DNA from: an uncultured Candidatus Peribacteria bacterium
GTDB taxonomy: Bacteria; Patescibacteriota; Gracilibacteria; Peribacterales; Peribacteraceae
Direction of reading: 5' to 3'
DNA: 64,000 bases
Assembly (NCBI GenBank): GCA_964611095.1
Contig: CAZSWJ010000001.1
Location: 31,735-95,734, forward strand
The position numbers were made by a program, and so were the translations under genes. This document shows, piece after piece, positions 16,801 to 62,778 of the stretch. The notes beneath the pieces are model-generated. The model saw nothing but the letters and a program-made list of their open reading frames with translations, did no database searches and had not been told where the DNA came from. Within the stretch, counting starts at the first letter, position 1. Each line of letters starts with the position of its first letter.

Positions 16801-17527
16801 AGTCCTGCATACCAAGAAGGGGGAGAGCATGGCCATCGTCACCATCGAAGATCCCACCGGAAAAATGGAAGTGATGTTCTTCCCGCGCACGTACGCGCAA
16901 TTCAAAGAGACGATCGAGAAGCCCGACTCCATCCTCGTCATGGCGGGCACGCTCGACCAGCGCATGGGACTTCCCCAGCTCAAGGCCGAGGCCGTGAAAC
17001 GCGTGTCGCTCGAGACGATGGTGGATCGCGCCAAGGCCGACGGCATGTTCAACGAGGAGGAAGCCCGCGACTGGCGCGGAACCGCTCGCAAAGAAGTCGA
17101 AGAGACGGTGGAAGTGGTCACGGAAGACGGCGATATCGTCGCCGAGCGCATCAAAACCGCAGCTCCTGCCGATGTCACTCTTGCCGCGGAGCCCAAGGTG
17201 CTCGGGCCGCTCGCGGAGTGGATCGGCAAGGGCATGCCCGTTGCGGAACCGCTGACCAAGCTGCATCTCACGGAGTATTCGGTGAGCGATGACGAAAAGC
17301 CCGCCGCACCGCCGGCGATTTCCATTCACACCATCGCCTTGCCCGCTCGCGCGCCCAAACAATTGCTCCTGGAGATCAAAACCATCTTCGAGACGTTCCC
17401 CGGTCGCGAAAAAGTGCAGCTGCAGATCGGAGAAAAAACCGTCCCCGTCGGCATGACGATCACGATGTCACCGCTTTTGGAAAAGCGCGTGGAAGAAGCC
17501 GTCAAAAAATACCCGGCGGAAAAGTAG
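13805..17527 (+). CDS. dnaE: DNA polymerase III alpha subunit
   Basis: 1240 aa. PHP motif FVHLHCHSTFSLLEG, plus PDIDIDF and GYFLIVADF. Start is TTG 13805 or ATG 13814. Confidence 0.95.
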   Translation: MASMKPSDFVHLHCHSTFSLLEGLPSPEEIVLRAKELGQTAVGLADKGYTYGLIDFYKSAKSAGLSPILGLETYVAARTRHDKESSSDTRRYPLVLLASNEEGYLNLLELATRAALEGMYYKPRVDAELLKKFGKGLIALTGPIGGAIPQAAMAEDFERVKLLTEQYRSFFGSENLYFELNDLPNVPGQAEVNQQLIRFGKELGVPVVATCNSHYCRAEDAEAHDVLLCIQKNANVGDSSRFSMRDSDFSMRPFDEMEKAFAHVPEALENTRVIADRCKLKIPFGEYRIPKFPVAAGQTEESLLKEQCEAGLQKRYGAQIKGDPAREKVIRDRLEYELGVIKTMGFSGYFLIVADFVQEAKRRGITVGPGRGSAAGSIVSYVLDVTTLDPLEYGLLFERFLNPERISMPDIDIDFADTRRDEVLEYVRQKYGADRVIQICTFGTLAARAAVKDVGRAYGVSFAEMNALAKVISDRPGTTLDEALATDELKAAIESNDTYKKILEVALKLEGKARHVSVHACGVVITPEPAVKYTALQRAPKDEDTIITQFDAKPLEALGLLKMDFLGLKNLTIIQTALLIIERMHNVKIDMSTIPMNDKKTFELLSRGETTGVFQLESPGMRRYLKQLKPTKFDDITAMVSLYRPGPMDKIPDYIKCKHGLKEVTYLHPDLKPILEPTYGVGIYQEQILEMARVFAGFSLGEADLLRRAIGKKIKKELDAQREKFIKGAVSRGYTEKLATTLFDDVITPFAGYGFNKSHGACYARIAYETAYLKALYPTEFMAALLSSEEGDTDRISIEIEEARAMGLKVLPPDINESLANFTSLAGGNIRFGLLGVKGVGESSIRQIIELREKEGKFTSVEDFASRVPAKLLNKKLLESLAKSGALDCFGERGVLVAQFDKIAEYSKSAGDVGASQTDMFESLGRDSAGSKIEFDPQDPASGYKKLQWEKETLGLYVSSHPLAGLRKYISKKARLIDSLSGDDTGRKITVAGIVEQSKVLHTKKGESMAIVTIEDPTGKMEVMFFPRTYAQFKETIEKPDSILVMAGTLDQRMGLPQLKAEAVKRVSLETMVDRAKADGMFNEEEARDWRGTARKEVEETVEVVTEDGDIVAERIKTAAPADVTLAAEPKVLGPLAEWIGKGMPVAEPLTKLHLTEYSVSDDEKPAAPPAISIHTIALPARAPKQLLLEIKTIFETFPGREKVQLQIGEKTVPVGMTITMSPLLEKRVEEAVKKYPAEK

Positions 17528-17626
17528 TAAGGGATAAGTAGTAAAGTAGTACGTAGTAAGTAGTAAGGGGATACCACATTCATATTGCATGCCACGTATC
17601 CCGTACTACATGCTACTTACTACTTA
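17524..17626. repeat. Low-complexity inverted-repeat hairpin (GTAGTAAG-type arms)
   Basis: The left arm (agtagtaagggataagtagtaaagtagtacgtagtaagtagtaagggga) pairs imperfectly with the right arm (tcccgtactacatgctacttactactt). The left arm is nearly C-free and stop-rich in all frames. It lies between dnaE and tsaC. Confidence 0.7.
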
Positions 17627-17631
17627 ATCGC

Positions 17632-18264
17632 TTGATGCACATCCTCCCCGCCACCACCCATTCGCTCTCCTACGCAGTCGCCGTTCTTCGTGCGGGCGGA
17701 GTCGTGGCTCACCCCACCGAGACGTGTTACGGACTCGCGTGCGATCTCAAAAATCCCGCGGCGCTCAAGAAACTGTTCGATATCAAAGCGCGTCCGTACG
17801 AGCAGCCCGTGAGCGCACTGTTTTCGTCGGTCGATACCGCGAAAGCGTACGTCGAACTTTCTTCGCGAGCCCTGGAATTGGCCGAAAGGCACCTTCCCGG
17901 TCCGCTCACGATCGTCGCACCCATCAAGAAAGATGCCCCCGTCATTTTCGTCACGGTGTCCGATCTACCCGCTACTCGCCAACCGCCACCCGCCAGCGTG
18001 GGCGTTCGCATCTCGTCGCATCCGTTCGCACAGGCTCTCGCCGAAAGCTTCGGCTCGCCCATCGCCACGACGTCGGCGAATCTGCACGGCAAACCGAATC
18101 CGTATTCGTCGTCCGACATCGCGGAACAACTCAAGGATCACTCACCGGTGCCCGACCTTATTCTTGATGGCGGTACTTTGCCCGAAGCTCCTCCGTCGAC
18201 GGTTGTCTCCGTTTCGGGACCAGATCTTCGCGTGCTTCGTCAGGGCGATCTAAAAATTCTTTGA
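17632..18264 (+). CDS. tsaC: L-threonylcarbamoyladenylate synthase (YrdC/Sua5 family)
   Basis: 210 aa. HPTETCYGLACD and SANLHGKP motifs of the YrdC domain. Start is TTG 17632 or ATG 17635. Confidence 0.85.
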   Translation: MMHILPATTHSLSYAVAVLRAGGVVAHPTETCYGLACDLKNPAALKKLFDIKARPYEQPVSALFSSVDTAKAYVELSSRALELAERHLPGPLTIVAPIKKDAPVIFVTVSDLPATRQPPPASVGVRISSHPFAQALAESFGSPIATTSANLHGKPNPYSSSDIAEQLKDHSPVPDLILDGGTLPEAPPSTVVSVSGPDLRVLRQGDLKIL

Positions 18265-19298: not shown

Positions 19299-19306
19299 GA
19301 CTTTTT

Positions 19307-19395
19307 GCGGGTAGCGGTGGGCGGGTAGCGGGTAGAATCCCCGTTGTTCTTTCTTTGGGCGCTCTACCCGCTAACCGCTACTCGCTCGCCGCTAT
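19307..19395. repeat. GGGTAGCG-type inverted-repeat hairpin (empty loop)
   Basis: Left arm gcgggtagcggtgggcgggtagcgggtag, about 26-nt loop, right arm ctctacccgctaaccgctactcgctcgccgct. Same motif family as 60631-61075 and 62689-62778. Confidence 0.75.
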
Positions 19396-42618: not shown

Positions 42619-42625
42619 CAAACGG

Positions 42626-43123
42626 AGTGTAAAGTGAAAGGTGAAATGTCAAAAGTGCGAAAGTGGAAAGTTCGTAAGTGCGAAAGTCACATGCGTTTGT
42701 TTTTTGCGGTCCTGATGCTCTGTACGAGCATATTGATGATTTCTTCCGAATGCATGACGAGAGGGATGCAGTCGGATTGCGTCGCATAGCCCGCATCTTC
42801 CATCAGATGCAACCAATAGCGACTCTCGTATCCTTCTTTTAAGGCGATCGATAACTTTGAAATAAAGTCGGCACGACTTTGCGGTTGCTGAGCTTCTTCG
42901 ATGTTGGCGCCCACGCTCGTCGCGGATCTCATTAATTGTTTACTCAGAATAAATTCCTTTTTTTGCTCGATGACATACCTGCAAAAAAGAGTGACCCGAA
43001 GTGCAAATCGATACGATTTTTCGTGAAGGGGTCCAGAGAATGTTCGTAGTGCTTTCATGATGGCTGGATTGCATGGATTGTACTTTCGCACTTGGATTAC
43101 TTACATACTTTCGCACTTCTACA
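42626..43123. repeat. Inverted-repeat-bounded cassette carrying a four-helix-bundle ORF
   Basis: The left arm (..aaaagtgcgaaagtggaaagttcgtaagtgcgaaagt) pairs with the right arm (actttcgcacttggattacttacatactttcgcacttctac). The ORF fills the loop. Confidence 0.65.
42687..43058 (-). CDS. Four-helix-bundle protein (23S rRNA intervening-sequence protein family-like)
   Basis: SATSVGANIEEAQ and SIALKEGYESRYWL motifs typical of this family. GC is lower than the flanks. Start is ATG 43058 (GTG 43091 in the track). Confidence 0.75.
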   Translation of the reverse strand: MKALRTFSGPLHEKSYRFALRVTLFCRYVIEQKKEFILSKQLMRSATSVGANIEEAQQPQSRADFISKLSIALKEGYESRYWLHLMEDAGYATQSDCIPLVMHSEEIINMLVQSIRTAKNKRM

Positions 43124-44621
43124 CGCCCACTTGTTGCCTGTACTGCAGTGCTTCGGCGACGTGTTGCAGAGCGATGTTCTCGGCTCCGGCGAGATCGGCG
43201 ATGGTGCGCGCCACTTTGATGATGCGGTGATACGAACGCGCCGAAAAATTCATGCGCTCGGACGCTTGTCTCAGGAGTGCTTCGCACTTGGAGTCGAGCG
43301 GACAGAATGTTTCCAGGTCCTTTACGCCCATCTCCTTATTGGTGGAAATGCTGCGCTTCTTGAAGCGCTTGATCTGTCTCTCGCGTGCGGCCATGACGCG
43401 ACTGCGGATCGCGGCACTCGTTTCGGCCGCGGCGGGAGCTTTGCCCTGCAAGTCCGCGATTTCCACGGGCTGCACGTCGATGGTGAGGTCGATGCGATCG
43501 AGGAGCGGAGCCGAAATCCTGCGCTTCATGCGCTCCGCGGACGACGACGAATACTTCGGCGGATTCATGGCGCCCACCATGATGAAGTCGGCCGGGAACG
43601 TGACGCTTCCCTGCGCCCTGTTGATGGTGATGCGTCGGTCTTCGAGCGGCTGACGAAGAACTTCCAGTACCTGCGGCGGGAATTCGGCGAGTTCATCCAA
43701 GAAGAGAACGCCGCGGTGTGCCAAAGAAATTTCTCCCGGCATGGGGTGCTGTCCCCCGCCGACGATGGCGACTCCGCTCGCCGTGTGGTGCACGGTGCGA
43801 ATCGGCCGGTCTTGAATGAGCGGCATGTCGGACGGCAGCAAATTCGCGACGGAATAAATGCCCGTGATCTCCAGCGATTCCTCCCGCGTCAGCGGCGGTA
43901 AAATGCCGCGGAGTGCGCCCGCTAAAAGCGTCTTCCCCGATCCCGGAGCACCCGAGAGAAGCACATTGTGTCCGCCTGCGGCGGCGATTTCGAGTGCGCG
44001 TTTGGCGAGCGCCTGGCCACGCACGTCGGCGAAGTCCACGGTGGCCGTGAGGTGCCCGGTGCCCGCATCGGGCGGCACGATGACGGGCGCCTCCATTTGT
44101 CCCGTGAGACACGCAACGACTTCGCGCAAATTGTTGACGGCGATGACCGTGAGCCCCGGCACGAGCGCCGCTTCGGGCCCGTTCATCGCCGGAACGACGA
44201 TGGTCTTGATGCCGCGTTTGGCGCATGCCAGAGCGCACGCGAGTACGCCGGTGGCATGACGAAGTTGTCCGTCGAACGCCAGCTCGCCGATCAGCGCCGT
44301 TGCTTCCAAAATCTTTTTGGGGATGTCGATGACGTCGCTGCTTTGGAGAATGCCGAGCGCGATGGGAAGATCGAACCGCGAGCCCGCTTTGCGGATGTGC
44401 GCGGGCGCCAAGTTCACGTTCGTGATGCGACCCATCGGAATTTTATACCCCGATGCCTTGAGCGCCATGATCACGCGCTGCTTGCTCTCTTGCACCGCGG
44501 CGTCGCCGAGTCCGACGATCTGAAATTTCGGTTCGCCCGCGGTGGGGATGACGCCGATTTCCACATCGATGGGAAGTGCGCTGACACCGACGGTGGTGAA
44601 GGAGGTGAGCTGCGTGAGCAT
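43119..44621 (-). CDS. comM: YifB/ComM family Mg-chelatase-like AAA+ ATPase
   Basis: 500 aa. VRGQALAKRALEIAAAGGHNVLLSGAPGSGKT and FLDELAEF motifs. Confidence 0.9.
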   Translation of the reverse strand: MLTQLTSFTTVGVSALPIDVEIGVIPTAGEPKFQIVGLGDAAVQESKQRVIMALKASGYKIPMGRITNVNLAPAHIRKAGSRFDLPIALGILQSSDVIDIPKKILEATALIGELAFDGQLRHATGVLACALACAKRGIKTIVVPAMNGPEAALVPGLTVIAVNNLREVVACLTGQMEAPVIVPPDAGTGHLTATVDFADVRGQALAKRALEIAAAGGHNVLLSGAPGSGKTLLAGALRGILPPLTREESLEITGIYSVANLLPSDMPLIQDRPIRTVHHTASGVAIVGGGQHPMPGEISLAHRGVLFLDELAEFPPQVLEVLRQPLEDRRITINRAQGSVTFPADFIMVGAMNPPKYSSSSAERMKRRISAPLLDRIDLTIDVQPVEIADLQGKAPAAAETSAAIRSRVMAARERQIKRFKKRSISTNKEMGVKDLETFCPLDSKCEALLRQASERMNFSARSYHRIIKVARTIADLAGAENIALQHVAEALQYRQQVGV

Positions 44622-58804: not shown

Positions 58805-59089
58805 TTAGGCGCTCAAAGCTTCCATAATTGGCTCATAGCGCGGGATGCTTTCCAGGTAGCCCCACAAGAACAATTTGGTCTCCTGACGAAGCAGGCGAAC
58901 GGCCGCCGTGGCATTCGGAGTCACGAGCAAAGAATCGATCAAATTGCGCGCTTCTTCCACACTGGCATCAGTCCGCTCCAGCACATCTTCATCGCTCACG
59001 TCGGGCACCAGCGTCACGCCCTTGCTGTCCCGTAGCAGCAGTGCCGCGGACGAATCGATCTGCCTAGCGATATCACGCGCTTGGAGCAT
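58805..59089 (-). CDS. Hypothetical protein (94 aa)
   Basis: ATG 59089 (MLQARDIARQIDSS...). The longer 121-aa form starting at 59170 is less plausible. Confidence 0.45.
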   Translation of the reverse strand: MLQARDIARQIDSSAALLLRDSKGVTLVPDVSDEDVLERTDASVEEARNLIDSLLVTPNATAAVRLLRQETKLFLWGYLESIPRYEPIMEALSA

Positions 59090-59215
59090 TGAAATGCAGT
59101 GTAGGCTCGTGCCGCAGGAGGACAATCGTTTCTTCGGCATTTTCCAGCCGAGCCCTTGTTGTTGCGACAAAGTCGATGCGCAGGAAACATGCGGACAGAG
59201 GCGAAGATCGTCATC

Positions 59216-59221
59216 TATACT
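59216..59221 (+). promoter_or_regulatory. -10-like TATACT 8 nt before ATG 59230
   Basis: TATACT-N8-ATG. Same hexamer as upstream of aspS. Confidence 0.4.
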
Positions 59222-59229
59222 TCATCCGC

Positions 59230-60615
59230 ATGATCGACCCACACATTTTCCGTGCCTACGACATCCGCGGCAAAGCGGGCAAGCAAATCACCGATGAAGC
59301 CTGCTTCCTCATCGGCCGCGGCTTCGGGGAAATCCTCGTGGAGAAGTATGGCAAGAAGCCGAAGGTCGCCGTCGGTCGCGATGCGCGCACGCACAGTCCG
59401 GGTTTCCAAAAGAAAATGATGGAAGGTCTCGCGGCGTCCGGTTGCGACGTCAGCGACATCGGCCAAACGCCGAGCCCCGTGAACTACTTCACCATCTGCA
59501 ACGCGAATTTCGATGCAGGCGTGCAGATCACCGCGAGCCACAACCCCAAAGAAGACAACGGCATCAAGCTGCAGATCCGCGACGCCGAAGCGTTCAGCGG
59601 TGACGATCTCCAAGTTCTTCGCAGGCGCATCGAAGAAAAAAACTACCCGCTTTCTACCCGCAACTCGCTACCGGCTTTTCAATCTTTTGACGCGCTCACC
59701 GCGTACATCGAAACGCTCGCCACCACGTTCCATGGCGTCGGCGAAGGCAAGCACGTCGTCGTGGACGGCGGCAACGGTGTCGCGGGTCCCGCGTACTGCG
59801 AAGTACTCAGGCGCGTCGGCTGCACGGTCACCGAAATTTTTACGGAGCCCGATGGAGAATTCCCGAACCACCCGGCGGACCCCAGCAAGCACAGCACGCT
59901 CAAAGATTTGCAGGCCAAAGTTTTGGCTTCCAAGGCCGATCTTGGGCTTGCCTACGACGGCGACGGCGACCGCATGGGCGCGGTGGATGAGAAGGGAAAC
60001 ATCGTCACGGCCGACCAAGCACTCTTGCTCCTCGCGCACGATCATCTCAAGCGTCATCCGGGAGCACCGATCATCTTCACGGTGAGCAACTCGTCACTCC
60101 TGGAAACCGAAACGAAGAAGTGGGGCGGCGTCCCCGTGATGTGCAAAGTGGGCCACTCGTTCGTGGAACACGCGATGCGCGAACACGACTCCAAGCTCGG
60201 CGGTGAACAAAGCGGGCACTTCTTCTGCGGCGAAGAGTATTACGGTTTCGACGATGCGCTCGTGGCATCACTTCGGCTTCTCGCGGTCCTGAAGCACGGC
60301 AAGAAGCCGCTGTCCGTTCTCATCGACGCATTCCCCAAGGTCTACCAAGCGCTTGAGCGTCGTCCGCACTGCGCCGACGATAAAAAAGCCGACGTCGTCC
60401 GTCGCATCACGGAACATTTTCAGAAAACTCACCCCGTCGTCACGCTCGACGGCGCGCGTATCGACTTCGGTGACGGTGCGTGGGCCGGAGTCCGCTACTC
60501 CAACACGAGTCCGTGTCTCAGCATCTGCATCGAGGCGCGGTCGGAAGCGAAGCTGAAGGAGGTGGAGGGGGTTGTTCTGGGGGTGCTTGGAACGTATCCG
60601 GAGGTGGATTTGTAG
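59230..60615 (+). CDS. Phosphomannomutase/phosphoglucomutase
   Basis: From ATG 59230 (MIDPHIFRAYDIRG). ITASHNP active-site loop and YDGDGDR metal loop. Confidence 0.9.
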   Translation: MIDPHIFRAYDIRGKAGKQITDEACFLIGRGFGEILVEKYGKKPKVAVGRDARTHSPGFQKKMMEGLAASGCDVSDIGQTPSPVNYFTICNANFDAGVQITASHNPKEDNGIKLQIRDAEAFSGDDLQVLRRRIEEKNYPLSTRNSLPAFQSFDALTAYIETLATTFHGVGEGKHVVVDGGNGVAGPAYCEVLRRVGCTVTEIFTEPDGEFPNHPADPSKHSTLKDLQAKVLASKADLGLAYDGDGDRMGAVDEKGNIVTADQALLLLAHDHLKRHPGAPIIFTVSNSSLLETETKKWGGVPVMCKVGHSFVEHAMREHDSKLGGEQSGHFFCGEEYYGFDDALVASLRLLAVLKHGKKPLSVLIDAFPKVYQALERRPHCADDKKADVVRRITEHFQKTHPVVTLDGARIDFGDGAWAGVRYSNTSPCLSICIEARSEAKLKEVEGVVLGVLGTYPEVDL

Positions 60616-60630
60616 AGGAAAAGTCAGGGT

Positions 60631-61075
60631 GAGCGAGTAGCGGTTGGCGGGTAGCGGGTAGATTGCAGCTTTTGACGAAGCGATCATGGTGGCATGACCC
60701 ACCTCCCCTTTACCAAGCTCATCGTCTGGCAAGCAGCGATGACGCTCGTGAAACACATTTATTTGTATACCCGACAATTTCCTTCATCGGAGTTCTATGG
60801 CCTCAGCCAACAAATGCGCCGAGCCGCCATCTCCATACCCTCAAACATCGCCGAAGGAAGTCAGCGGACGTCCGATAAAGAATTTTCCTACTTCCTCCGA
60901 GTCGCCAAGGGATCTTTGGCCGAATTGGAGACGCAAATTCTGCTGTCCATTGAACTTAAATACATGAAGAAAGTATCCTCCAATGCTCTGATGGAGGACA
61001 TTCATGTATTGTCGAAAATGTTACGGTCGCTCATCGCGAAGGTTTCTACCCGCTAACCGCCACCCGCCATCCGCC
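60631..61075. repeat. GGGTAGCG-type inverted-repeat cassette carrying a four-helix-bundle ORF
   Basis: The left arm gagcgagtagcggttggcgggtagcgggtaga pairs with the right arm tctacccgctaaccgccacccgccatccgcc. The ORF stop codon lies inside the right arm. Confidence 0.7.
60694..61056 (+). CDS. Four-helix-bundle protein (23S rRNA intervening-sequence protein family-like)
   Basis: 120 aa. LIVWQAAMTLVKHIY, ISIPSNIAEGSQR and GSLAELETQ motifs typical of the family. Confidence 0.8.
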   Translation: MTHLPFTKLIVWQAAMTLVKHIYLYTRQFPSSEFYGLSQQMRRAAISIPSNIAEGSQRTSDKEFSYFLRVAKGSLAELETQILLSIELKYMKKVSSNALMEDIHVLSKMLRSLIAKVSTR

Positions 61076-61107
61076 CTCTTCTTTCACTCACCGGCAAGGT
61101 CTGGAAT

Positions 61108-62688
61108 GTGAAAAGGCCGACGGCTGTGACAAACATCGCCTCGCTCCTCCGCTCCGAACGCGGCATCGTCGACGATCCCTCGGCCAAACTTTCGGACCCT
61201 TTTTTGTTTGCGGAGATGAAGAAAGCGGTGACGCGCATCAAGAAAGCGATCAAGGATAAAGAAACCGTCGCCATCTTCGGTGACTACGATGCCGACGGCA
61301 TCACGGGGACGGCGCAGCTCGTGCGATACTTCCGCAGGCACGGAGTCGAGCCGCTCGTGCATCTCCCGCACCGGACGAAAGAAGGCTACGGGATGAAGAA
61401 AGAAAGCATCGATGCGCTCAAGAAAAAAGGAACGACGCTCATGATCACGGTCGATACGGGTATTGCCGCACACGCCGAAATCGCGCATGCAGCCGAACTC
61501 GGCATCGACACCGTCGTCACCGATCACCACCGTCCGCAGGGTGGCAGGCCCGCGGCCTTCGCCGTCATTCATCCGCTCGTTCCGTCGGAGTTTCCGAACA
61601 AGCATCTGTCCGGCTCGGGCGTTGCGTTCATGCTCGTCCGTGCGCTGGAGGACGGCAAACCGTGGGACGGCATCGACGTCGATATCGCGCTCGCCGCCAT
61701 CGGCACCGTCGGTGATTTGGTTCCGCTCACGGGCGAGAATCGCGTGCTCGTTCTCCATGGCATCAAATTCATGCAGGCATTGCCCCCCGGGCCTCTCGCC
61801 GAGTTCATCGAGAGCGTTCGCACGAGCGGGTCACTTACCGCGTCCGACGTGGCATTCCGCATCGTTCCGCGCATCAACGCCGCGGGACGCATGGCGCACC
61901 CCGAGACGGCTCTCCAGGCCCTGCTGCAGGGCGGTGCGGCGCTCGAGGAACTCCACAAGCTCAACGGCGACAGGCAATCGTTCGTGGAGGAGCTCGACAC
62001 GTTGCTCCGGAACGAAGACGTCTCCAAGCATCCGTTCATCGTCGTCGGCAGCGACAAGGTCACGCCCGGGACGGCGGGACTCCTCGCCAGCCGCTTCACC
62101 GAGAGGTACGGCAAGCCGGGCCTCGTCTTCGCCATTCTCGGCGAGACCGCCGTGGGTTCGCTCCGCAGCCCCGAACAGATCGACGTCATGAAGTGCTTGG
62201 AGCATCCGTCGGTCAAATCTCTGCTCCTCACGTTCGGCGGTCACGCCCAAGCCGCGGGTTGCACCGTTCGTGCCGTCAATATTCCGAAACTTCGCGAAGC
62301 ACTCTCGCTCGCGGTGCGCGAACAGCTTGGTCCGGACGAAGAGCTGCTCCCGACATTGTCCATCGATGCCGAACTTCCGTCGAAGTCCGTCACGATGCGT
62401 CTCGCGAAAGAACTGCTGTCACTCTCGCCGTTCGGTGCGGGCAACGAAGAGCCGACGTTCTTACTGCGCCGTCAGCAACTCACGGACCTGCGCGTCGTCG
62501 GAGCCGAGGGCACGCATCTCCAGTGCCGCATCGGCGACGTCAAAGGCATCGGATTCCGTTTGGGTGCATTCATCGATCATCTCGGCGGAGAAGAGCACGT
62601 CGATATCGCCTGTCGCATCGGAGTGAACGAGTGGCAGGGGAGGGAGAGCGTGCAGGTGGTGATTGAGGATGTGCGTGTGAGTGAATAA
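61108..62688 (+). CDS. recJ: Single-stranded-DNA-specific exonuclease RecJ
   Basis: 526 aa. DYDADGITG, VVTDHH and GGHAQAAG motifs. GTG start. Confidence 0.9.
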   Translation: MKRPTAVTNIASLLRSERGIVDDPSAKLSDPFLFAEMKKAVTRIKKAIKDKETVAIFGDYDADGITGTAQLVRYFRRHGVEPLVHLPHRTKEGYGMKKESIDALKKKGTTLMITVDTGIAAHAEIAHAAELGIDTVVTDHHRPQGGRPAAFAVIHPLVPSEFPNKHLSGSGVAFMLVRALEDGKPWDGIDVDIALAAIGTVGDLVPLTGENRVLVLHGIKFMQALPPGPLAEFIESVRTSGSLTASDVAFRIVPRINAAGRMAHPETALQALLQGGAALEELHKLNGDRQSFVEELDTLLRNEDVSKHPFIVVGSDKVTPGTAGLLASRFTERYGKPGLVFAILGETAVGSLRSPEQIDVMKCLEHPSVKSLLLTFGGHAQAAGCTVRAVNIPKLREALSLAVREQLGPDEELLPTLSIDAELPSKSVTMRLAKELLSLSPFGAGNEEPTFLLRRQQLTDLRVVGAEGTHLQCRIGDVKGIGFRLGAFIDHLGGEEHVDIACRIGVNEWQGRESVQVVIEDVRVSE

Positions 62689-62778
62689 GCGGGTAGCGGT
62701 TAGCGGGTAGAAACCTCGCTACGTAAAAGAGGAGCAGCGTCTTTTTGGCTACCCGCTATTCGCTACACGCTACTCGCC
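62689..62778. repeat. GGGTAGCG-type inverted-repeat hairpin (empty loop) between convergent recJ and the XRE gene
   Basis: Left arm gcgggtagcggttagcgggtaga, 37-nt loop, right arm ctacccgctattcgctacacgctactcgcc. Confidence 0.75.

Follow-up and report, generated by a model that had tools for sequence, protein, structure and literature searches.

A PF05635 four-helix-bundle gene between inverted heptamer arrays in a Peribacteraceae genome: a candidate cognate protein-repeat system

The cassette between PMM/PGM and recJ

The stretch of DNA analysed here (64,000 nt, hereafter the window) covers C1:31735-95734 of assembly G000 from an uncultured Peribacteraceae bacterium of the candidate phyla radiation (CPR), which has a genome of 1.27 Mb, a GC content of 57.6%, and an assembly completeness of 98%. 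Its placement, among the Peregrinibacteria, follows from the source names of homologous proteins. The 490-nt gap between a PMM/PGM gene and recJ holds a cassette in which an open reading frame (ORF) for a small four-helix-bundle (4HB) protein is bracketed by inverted arrays of tandem heptamers. The features of the locus are as follows.

59089..60615, + strand: PMM/PGM gene, upstream neighbour (ORF list; four PGM_PMM domains; stop TAG 60613-60615)
60616..60623, + strand: AG-rich outer foot AGGAAAAG, paired with the CT-rich foot in the predicted fold
60633..60662, + strand: left purine-rich arm of family A heptamers, GCGAGTA GCGGTTG GCGGGTA GCGGGTA GA
60663..60693, + strand: leader of 31 nt between the left arm and the ATG
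60694..61056, + strand: 4HB gene, 120 aa, PF05635 / TIGR02436 (ORF list and profile matches)
61045..61074, + strand: right pyrimidine-rich arm of TACCCGC-type heptamers; holds the ORF stop and overlaps the conserved 5' coding region of recJ
61075..61084, + strand: CT-rich outer foot CCTCTTCTTT, paired in the predicted fold
61108..62688, + strand: recJ, coordinates from its first canonical start, GTG

The cassette is built of an AG-rich foot, four to five purine-rich heptamers, a short leader, the PF05635 gene, complementary heptamers, and a CT-rich foot. The 120-aa ORF is a full-length member of PF05635 (E 1.5e-37, 128.5 bits, cut-off 33.8, with the match covering positions 2-105 of the 106 in the profile) and also matched TIGR02436 (E 1.1e-35, 122.1 bits, cut-off 24). 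The nearest solved structure to its product was 2GSC (XCC0516; E 2.3e-24); the entries 2GSC and 2RLD contain five chains each. The inverted arms at 60633-60662 and 61045-61074 are 30 nt long, 83% complementary, and 382 nt apart. They are not arbitrary palindromes but tandem heptamers, (GCGGGTA)n and (TACCCGC)n, with 4-5 units per arm. A preliminary description of this DNA had reported the bracketed four-helix-bundle ORF with its stop codon inside the right arm, and both observations are borne out, the stop being TAA 61054-61056. The motif GCGGGTAGCGGGTAG occurred 13 times in the window with up to two mismatches, against 0.08 expected, and none of 100 shuffles reached 13. The minimum-free-energy fold predicted for the 480-nt RNA 60616-61095 (-170.4 kcal/mol, z -4.8; none of 100 shuffles folded as well) joins the two arms across the ORF, as the preliminary description had supposed, and also pairs the outer feet AGGAAAAG and CUCUUCUUU.

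The cassette is probably transcribed together with PMM/PGM and recJ. The true start of PMM/PGM probably lies downstream of the TTG at 59089. At the other end, the conserved RecJ N-terminus LSLTGKxW is encoded from approximately 61081, ahead of the first canonical start codon (GTG 61108), and shares its reading frame with the 4HB stop TAA 61054; ATC 61069-61071, within the right arm, aligns with the ATG of recJ in the congener G002. RecJ may have a non-canonical start codon, translation may re-initiate after the 4HB stop, or the protein may be N-terminally shortened.

The synteny of PMM and recJ is kept in seven relatives, and the junction between them was found in several states (identities are to G000).

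G002 (same genus): PMM 95%, RecJ 90%; PF05635 gene 43% identical, nonamer arms (TACAAGGAA)n
G001 (same genus): PMM 73%, RecJ 69%; gene 40% identical, nonamer arms (AACCAAGGR)n
G004: PMM 63%, RecJ 59%; gene 52% identical, GGTAGTT-type heptamer arms
G006: PMM 70%, RecJ 51%; ORF-less (GAATTGA)n hairpin
G009: PMM 77%, RecJ 73%; spacer of 85 nt without arrays
G014: PMM 69%, RecJ 67%; unrelated sequence

The junction is thus seen occupied, differently occupied, with a hairpin only, and empty. In G014 (locus L005) the gap is approximately 350 nt of AT-rich sequence, maybe with a small reverse-strand ORF, and holds neither a 4HB gene nor an array hairpin. The G001 cassette (locus L004), with a 4HB gene in family D arms, seemingly needs an extra A in an A5 run near the start for the ATG frame; this could reflect a frameshift, an assembly error, or a later start.

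In a search space of approximately 5.8 billion clustered proteins, the three closest homologues of the 4HB protein were 64, 60, and 58% identical by BLASTP (63, 59, and 56% as listed by the protein search). Each is encoded at PMM|recJ, on another Peribacteraceae contig, between GGTAGCG-type arms. The 4HB identities of 64, 60, 58, and 52% parallel PMM identities of 79, 75, 68, and 63%, and the ORF is intact, with its length of 120 aa kept in four genomes. Since the junction and the arm type are the same and the identity tracks that of the flanks, the cassette is old at this site and not a recent arrival. The alignments show the A-type cassette as an old, vertically kept resident of PMM|recJ in Peribacteraceae. 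Judged in the same way, the nearest sister species has exchanged it for a different 4HB cassette, and other relatives have lost it. The sequence of the arm unit is, by this comparison, constrained: it is conserved despite the loss of approximately 40% of protein identity and next to a leader that cannot be aligned across orthologous cassettes. The AG-rich foot is kept before the arms as RGGAAAAGWC, also in G002, G001, and G004.

Most array families follow the PF05635 genes

Exactly three PF05635 genes are present in G000, each within inverted arrays of a different family: A (GCGGGTA) at PMM|recJ, B (GGAAAGT) in the window at 42625-43131, and C (AGTAGTA) at C7:7106-7570. No PF05635 remnants beyond these three genes were found in G000. 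Surveyed over the whole genome, the family A motif makes up approximately 150 arms, including 51 tight '+-' pairs and zero '-+' pairs, so that the G-rich arm always comes first; the PMM|recJ cassette is the sole gene-bearing member. Arms of 4-5 units account for 131 of the 150, and the unit positions G1, C2, G3, and T6 are 91-99% invariant. B and C are minor heptamer families in G000, where nonamer arrays (family D), some E arrays, and some octamer arrays are also present. When all families of the three congeners were counted, the purine-rich arm was 5' in 103 of 105 close inverted pairs, both strands alike. This polarity makes a bare requirement for a hairpin an insufficient explanation; it fits a reader of an emerging purine-rich single strand or a directional DNA process. 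In an M-type cassette of G001 (C4:12060-12200), the right arm consists of three copies of an approximately 24-nt unit, CTAATAACCAATACACTTATAA, and is far longer than the left.

The congeners G002 and G001 were compared with G000 as whole genomes. A family-specific scan for arms (three units at at least 80% identity) gave the following numbers in G000 and G002.

Family A: 150 in G000, 5 in G002 (background 2-4)
Family C: 12 in G000, 3 in G002
Family E: 12 in G000, 44 in G002
Family F: 1 in G000, 10 in G002
Family Gf: 0 in G000, 10 in G002
Family B: 21 in G000, 24 in G002

The PF05635 genes have arms of types A, B, and C in G000 and of types E, F, Gf, and B in G002. The excess of A, C, E, F, and Gf arms was always in the genome whose PF05635 gene bears them. 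A second count by unbiased de novo clustering of arrays, extended to G001, gave the numbers below.

Family A: 113 in G000, 4 in G002, 5 in G001
Family C: 10 in G000, 0 in G002, 45 in G001
Family H: 3 in G000, 7 in G002, 28 in G001
Family E: about 2 in G000, about 29 in G002, 0 in G001
Family M: 0 in G000, 0 in G002, 10 in G001
Family D: 9 in G000, 33 in G002, 10 in G001 (only D-armed gene in G001)

For A, C, H, E, and M, the de novo abundance agrees with the presence of a gene bearing such arms. Among 41 relatives, matches to the family A pattern numbered at most 27 in every genome other than G000, which had 171, and PF05635 copies ranged from 0 to 24 per genome. In a small sample of matched recJ-region loci, 38 arrays were counted in 93.8 kb from genomes with PF05635 genes vs. 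1 in 35.3 kb from genomes without them. Most of 47 cassette loci in relatives had periodic arms (33 above the periodicity threshold), and among these 33 cassettes protein identity correlated with the sharing of 6-mers between arms (Mantel p 0.0005).

From these data we propose, at about even odds (a probability of roughly 0.5), that the cassette represents a cognate protein-repeat system built like a ribosomal RNA (rRNA) intervening sequence (IVS). The 4HB protein would recognise its own repeat unit on single-stranded RNA or DNA, as suggested by the five chains per entry of the closest solved relative, the 4-5 units per arm, and the constant 5' position of the purine-rich arm. Such recognition could license arrays built of this unit to spread or be rewritten genome-wide, which would make it a selfish protein-plus-repeat system comparable in logic to RAYT transposases and the paired repetitive extragenic palindromic sequences they mobilise (REP/REPIN). 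On mRNA, the stem around the gene would serve as an RNase III-type processing site or an autoregulatory structure; an rnc (RNase III) gene is present in G000. Arrays, once made, may persist without the gene: G000 has D and E arrays without a D or E gene, which indicates persistence after gene loss.

The hairpins could instead be REP/REPIN-like elements moved by a RAYT-like Y1 (HUH) transposase, with the 4HB genes as passengers or accessory cargo in their loops. PF01797 genes that encode an HUH motif (PDHIHLL) and a Y.H..P / WSS C-terminus number one each in G000 and G002 and two in G001. Approximately 60 nt after this gene lies a family-A hairpin in G000 (C2:88600-89180) and a family-E hairpin at the G002 ortholog; in G000 only one side of the gene has a hairpin. 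Of the two G001 copies, one stands within inverted nonamer arms where G002 has a Gf 4HB cassette and G000 an ORF-less A hairpin (the Y1-related loci are G001 C7:19644-20272 and G002 C3:25414-25928), so hairpin loops can carry cargo other than 4HB genes. Furthermore, the A and C units contain GTAG, which occurs in REP heads, and the copy numbers of PF01797 and PF05635 rise together across relatives. However, the single Y1 genes of G000 and G002 are near-identical orthologs, yet the array families of these genomes are almost disjoint, and the abundant families map to different 4HB genes and not to different Y1 genes. In G020, seven PF05635 genes and arrays of (GCGGGTT)n, some of them the arms of a 4HB gene, occur with no PF01797 match; 4HB genes without a Y1 match were also found in G021, G026, G034, and G040. 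Conversely, in G009, G017, G018, and G037, which have Y1 and no 4HB gene, arrays at the recJ loci were essentially nil (one GC-rich match in G009, none in the others). We therefore regard this explanation as unlikely. A combined model, with Y1 as the enzyme and the 4HB protein as the specificity adaptor, is conceivable.

Hairpins without genes and their turnover

Besides the PMM|recJ cassette, the window contains the following arrays.

17521..17629, no strand assigned: ORF-less family-C hairpin, (AGTAGTA)n, with the arm type of the PF05635 gene C7:7196-7507
17964..17998, - strand: solo family-A array, TACCCGC-type; the surrounding sequence aligns with G002 and looks coding
19305..19395, no strand assigned: ORF-less family-A hairpin after a gene end (fold z -5.8 vs. 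shuffles)
42625..43131, - strand: second cassette of the window, with a PF05635 gene 42687-43091 (-) between family-B arms
59652..59677, - strand: weak solo family-A array within the PMM/PGM ORF
62685..62777, no strand assigned: ORF-less family-A hairpin directly after the recJ stop (fold z -3.7 vs. shuffles)

The hairpins at 19305-19395 and 62685-62777 are the two that had been noted earlier as ORF-less copies of the same arm motif; both are real and fold better than shuffles. At the orthologous sites G002 has a hairpin of another family and a family-E nonamer hairpin, respectively. The arms of the second cassette are two copies of AAGTGCGAAAGT (42653-42664 and 42676-42687) and two of ACTTTCGCACTT (43082-43093 and 43107-43118), which pair in the predicted fold (z -2.6). 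This cassette, with its family-B/octamer arms, lies between ComM/Mg-chelatase-like and pyrF-like genes, and its G002 ortholog has a 91% identical gene and the same arms.

Turnover was followed at family-A loci of G000 for which both flanks were found in G002, the flanks being typically 85-96% identical. By a looser family scan of 93 loci, G002 had no array at approximately 43%, another family at approximately 50% (mostly D or E), and an A-like array at approximately 6%. The stricter de novo count of 78 loci gave no array at 59%, another family at 37%, and A at 4%. Families B/O8, D, and E were mostly represented by the same family at orthologous sites of the two genomes.

G000 and G002 often have hairpins at the same position but of different arm families, as would be expected if the hairpins were host RNA elements (stabilisers of mRNA ends, RNase III sites, or terminators) at fixed sites, with arms homogenised by gene conversion and 4HB genes that share their fate without a role. 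Many hairpins begin right after stop codons, the rnc gene is available, and most Xanthomonas heptamer arrays are transcribed (PMC4692102). Yet the same turnover data show no array at 43-59% of family-A sites in G002, and homogenisation predicts the dominant arms on all cassettes of a genome, whereas each 4HB gene has its own family. Paired hairpins were distributed over tandem, convergent, and divergent gaps as 24:10:8, the proportions of the background (434:134:174; crude gene calls), and the hairpins that were read closely lack a proper U-run. In addition, coding genes contain, in frame, 28 of 47 solo arms and some complete hairpins. We consider the host-element explanation quite improbable. 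Intrinsic terminators as such were rejected on the background-like context and on the feet of the closely read hairpins, which are of CTTT type or have no T-run.

Two loci of G000, C10:16530-16657 and C3:78833-78921, have both arms of a family-A hairpin translated in frame within coding genes. The conserved segments between the arms are VGWGSTKSVVLDVL in the C10 gene and the lysine-rich linker of a UvrA-like protein in the C3 gene. At C10:16530 the arms overwrite variable linkers of the gene, with a net gain of only 18 nt relative to G002 and no clean insertion.

The suggestion of the preliminary description that the cassette targets hairpins would, in its strict form, mean a mobile ORF module that enters the loop of a pre-existing GCGGGTA hairpin, which would leave the match of gene and arms incidental. 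Such a history could be read from the two ORF-less A hairpins of G000 (C1:203421 and C13:3777) that face gene-bearing Gf and F cassettes in G002 and from the ORF-less hairpin at PMM|recJ in G006. However, at every such site the gene-bearing and gene-less states have different arms, which argues that the gene did not simply enter or leave a loop; no pair with the same arms at one site with and without the gene was seen in the genomes compared. An A-type gene and its arms stand together at PMM|recJ in four more genomes (three metagenome contigs of clear A type and the GGTAGTT variant of G004). Random entry into the hairpins of G000, approximately 75% of which are of family A, would give three families for three genes with a probability of approximately 3%, as estimated from the de novo counts. 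Loop insertion is therefore very improbable.

The loops themselves were heterogeneous, and most resembled no other sequence. Three of 25 look homologous to local armless sequence of G002, two of them with significance against shuffles and the third on visual inspection, so the notion that a loop is the original local sequence held for these three only. A model of miniature inverted-repeat transposable elements or deletion derivatives was rejected on the lack of target-site duplications at 16 junctions, the heterogeneous loops, and the lack of PF05635 remnants.

Several of these observations weigh against the cognate protein-repeat system that we propose. At the 16 junctions compared, each a filled site in G000 and an empty one in G002, no target-site duplications were found, and the majority of loops have no sequence in common with a cassette interior; taken together, these two facts mean that the ORF-less hairpins are not simple deletion copies of a cassette. 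Family D (AAACCAAGG) outnumbers all others in G002 (33-50 arms), although none of the PF05635 genes there has D arms. It is rescued only by assuming cross-service from the sister E-type protein, which shares 58% identity with the D-armed G001 protein; of the nine positions in the unit, two distinguish D from E. In some protein pairs at 59-61% identity (L034 and the G000 protein; L035 and L041) the arms are unrelated, so that the unit is not fixed by overall protein similarity, and a strict rule by which the protein clade fixes the unit is weakened. The family counts rest on three whole genomes of one genus. Binding, RNase III cutting, the copying mechanism, and movement are all inferred. The 4HB protein has no known catalytic motif, and another enzyme must therefore do the DNA work.

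A broader version, which we offer tentatively and consider doubtful, would make PF05635 rings sequence-specific readers of tandem 7-9-nt arrays, with the gene and its arms as the master copy that licenses a family and with DNA chemistry provided by a host enzyme, e.g., the RAYT-like Y1. The rRNA IVSs and the heptamer arrays of Xanthomonas, Geobacter, and cyanobacteria would then belong to one system. To our knowledge, S23p proteins, also called 23S rRNA intervening-sequence proteins, have been without a known function since the early 1990s. If true, the cognate system would give one answer both for this function and for the excess of heptamer arrays near bacterial gene ends, linking an unexplained protein family to unexplained short repeats of bacteria. 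The small CPR genomes offer an unusually clean natural experiment, because sister species with flanks of 85-96% identity have almost disjoint array families that follow the arms of the PF05635 genes present.

Comparison with known systems

The 4HB protein shares a homologous four-helix-bundle fold with the Avd protein (bAvd) of diversity-generating retroelements (DGRs), a pentameric nucleic-acid-binding adaptor. The gene matched bAvd (PF22296, 19.3 bits) and DivGenRetAVD (NF033474, 24 bits) weakly, and these matches could suggest an Avd accessory protein of a DGR. The scores, however, are far under the cut-offs of 40 and 80 bits, respectively, and there is neither a reverse transcriptase nor a pair of template and variable repeats. 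No PF00078 reverse transcriptase was found in G000, G001, G002, G004, or G009. Its absence rules out the DGR reading for G000, and we assign this reading practically no weight.

Heptamer arrays near gene ends, with inverted copies, have been described for Xanthomonas (GGGAATC) and Nostoc (GGGGAYT), where G-quadruplexes were proposed (PMC4692102), and as four-heptamer elements for Geobacter (PMC2700814). These arrays and the short tandemly repeated repetitive (STRR) sequences of cyanobacteria resemble the arrays of G000 in their tandem heptamers of approximately four units, frequent convergent inverted pairs, and location between genes near stops. Family A, with its 131 of 150 arms of 4-5 units and 51 '+-' pairs, agrees with such intergenic arrays; those of Xanthomonas are transcribed (PMC4692102). 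Neither PMC4692102 nor PMC2700814 names a protein partner, whereas the arrays described here also bracket PF05635 genes, and their family abundance follows the presence of these genes. Full-text searches found no literature tying the PF05635 family to arrays outside rRNA.

In REP/REPIN systems with their RAYT, as in the present one, a gene stands between inverted copies of a repeat whose dispersed copies are hairpins without a gene; the families differ between close species, and the repeats are intergenic and occasionally in frame in genes. The flanked gene here differs in encoding a non-enzymatic four-helix bundle, and in place of one fixed palindrome the arms have tandem units of 7-9 nt in variable order. 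A single RAYT-like gene exists beside several families that have a gene each.

The likeness drawn by the preliminary description was to the 23S rRNA IVS, with a stem-plus-ORF architecture that is here placed between PMM/PGM and recJ. This likeness holds: like the Coxiella IVS (PMC4990558), the cassette has a stem of inverted repeats whose loop contains an S23p-family ORF, together with tandem heptamers and an AG-rich foot. The IVS of Coxiella burnetii (helix 45) has an AG-rich foot AGAAGA followed by (GACAGAT)3, an S23p ORF, a 28-bp stem, and RNase III cuts (PMC4990558). ORF-bearing IVSs of Coxiella burnetii and Leptospira (PMC4990558) and the PMM|recJ cassette have in common a length of approximately 430-490 nt, a terminal-repeat stem of approximately 28-30 bp, an S23p/PF05635 ORF that fills the loop, and an AG-rich foot with tandem heptamers before the start codon. 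The differences are that the PMM|recJ cassette lies between protein-coding genes and not in an rRNA helix, that its arms recur approximately 150 times gene-less in the genome, and that its ORF is intact while that of Coxiella is decaying (PMC4990558). The 23S rRNA IVSs are excised by RNase III, and the present stem would be a putative target of the same kind. By the features compared, membership among the 23S rRNA IVSs fails on location, and in architecture the analogy is apt.

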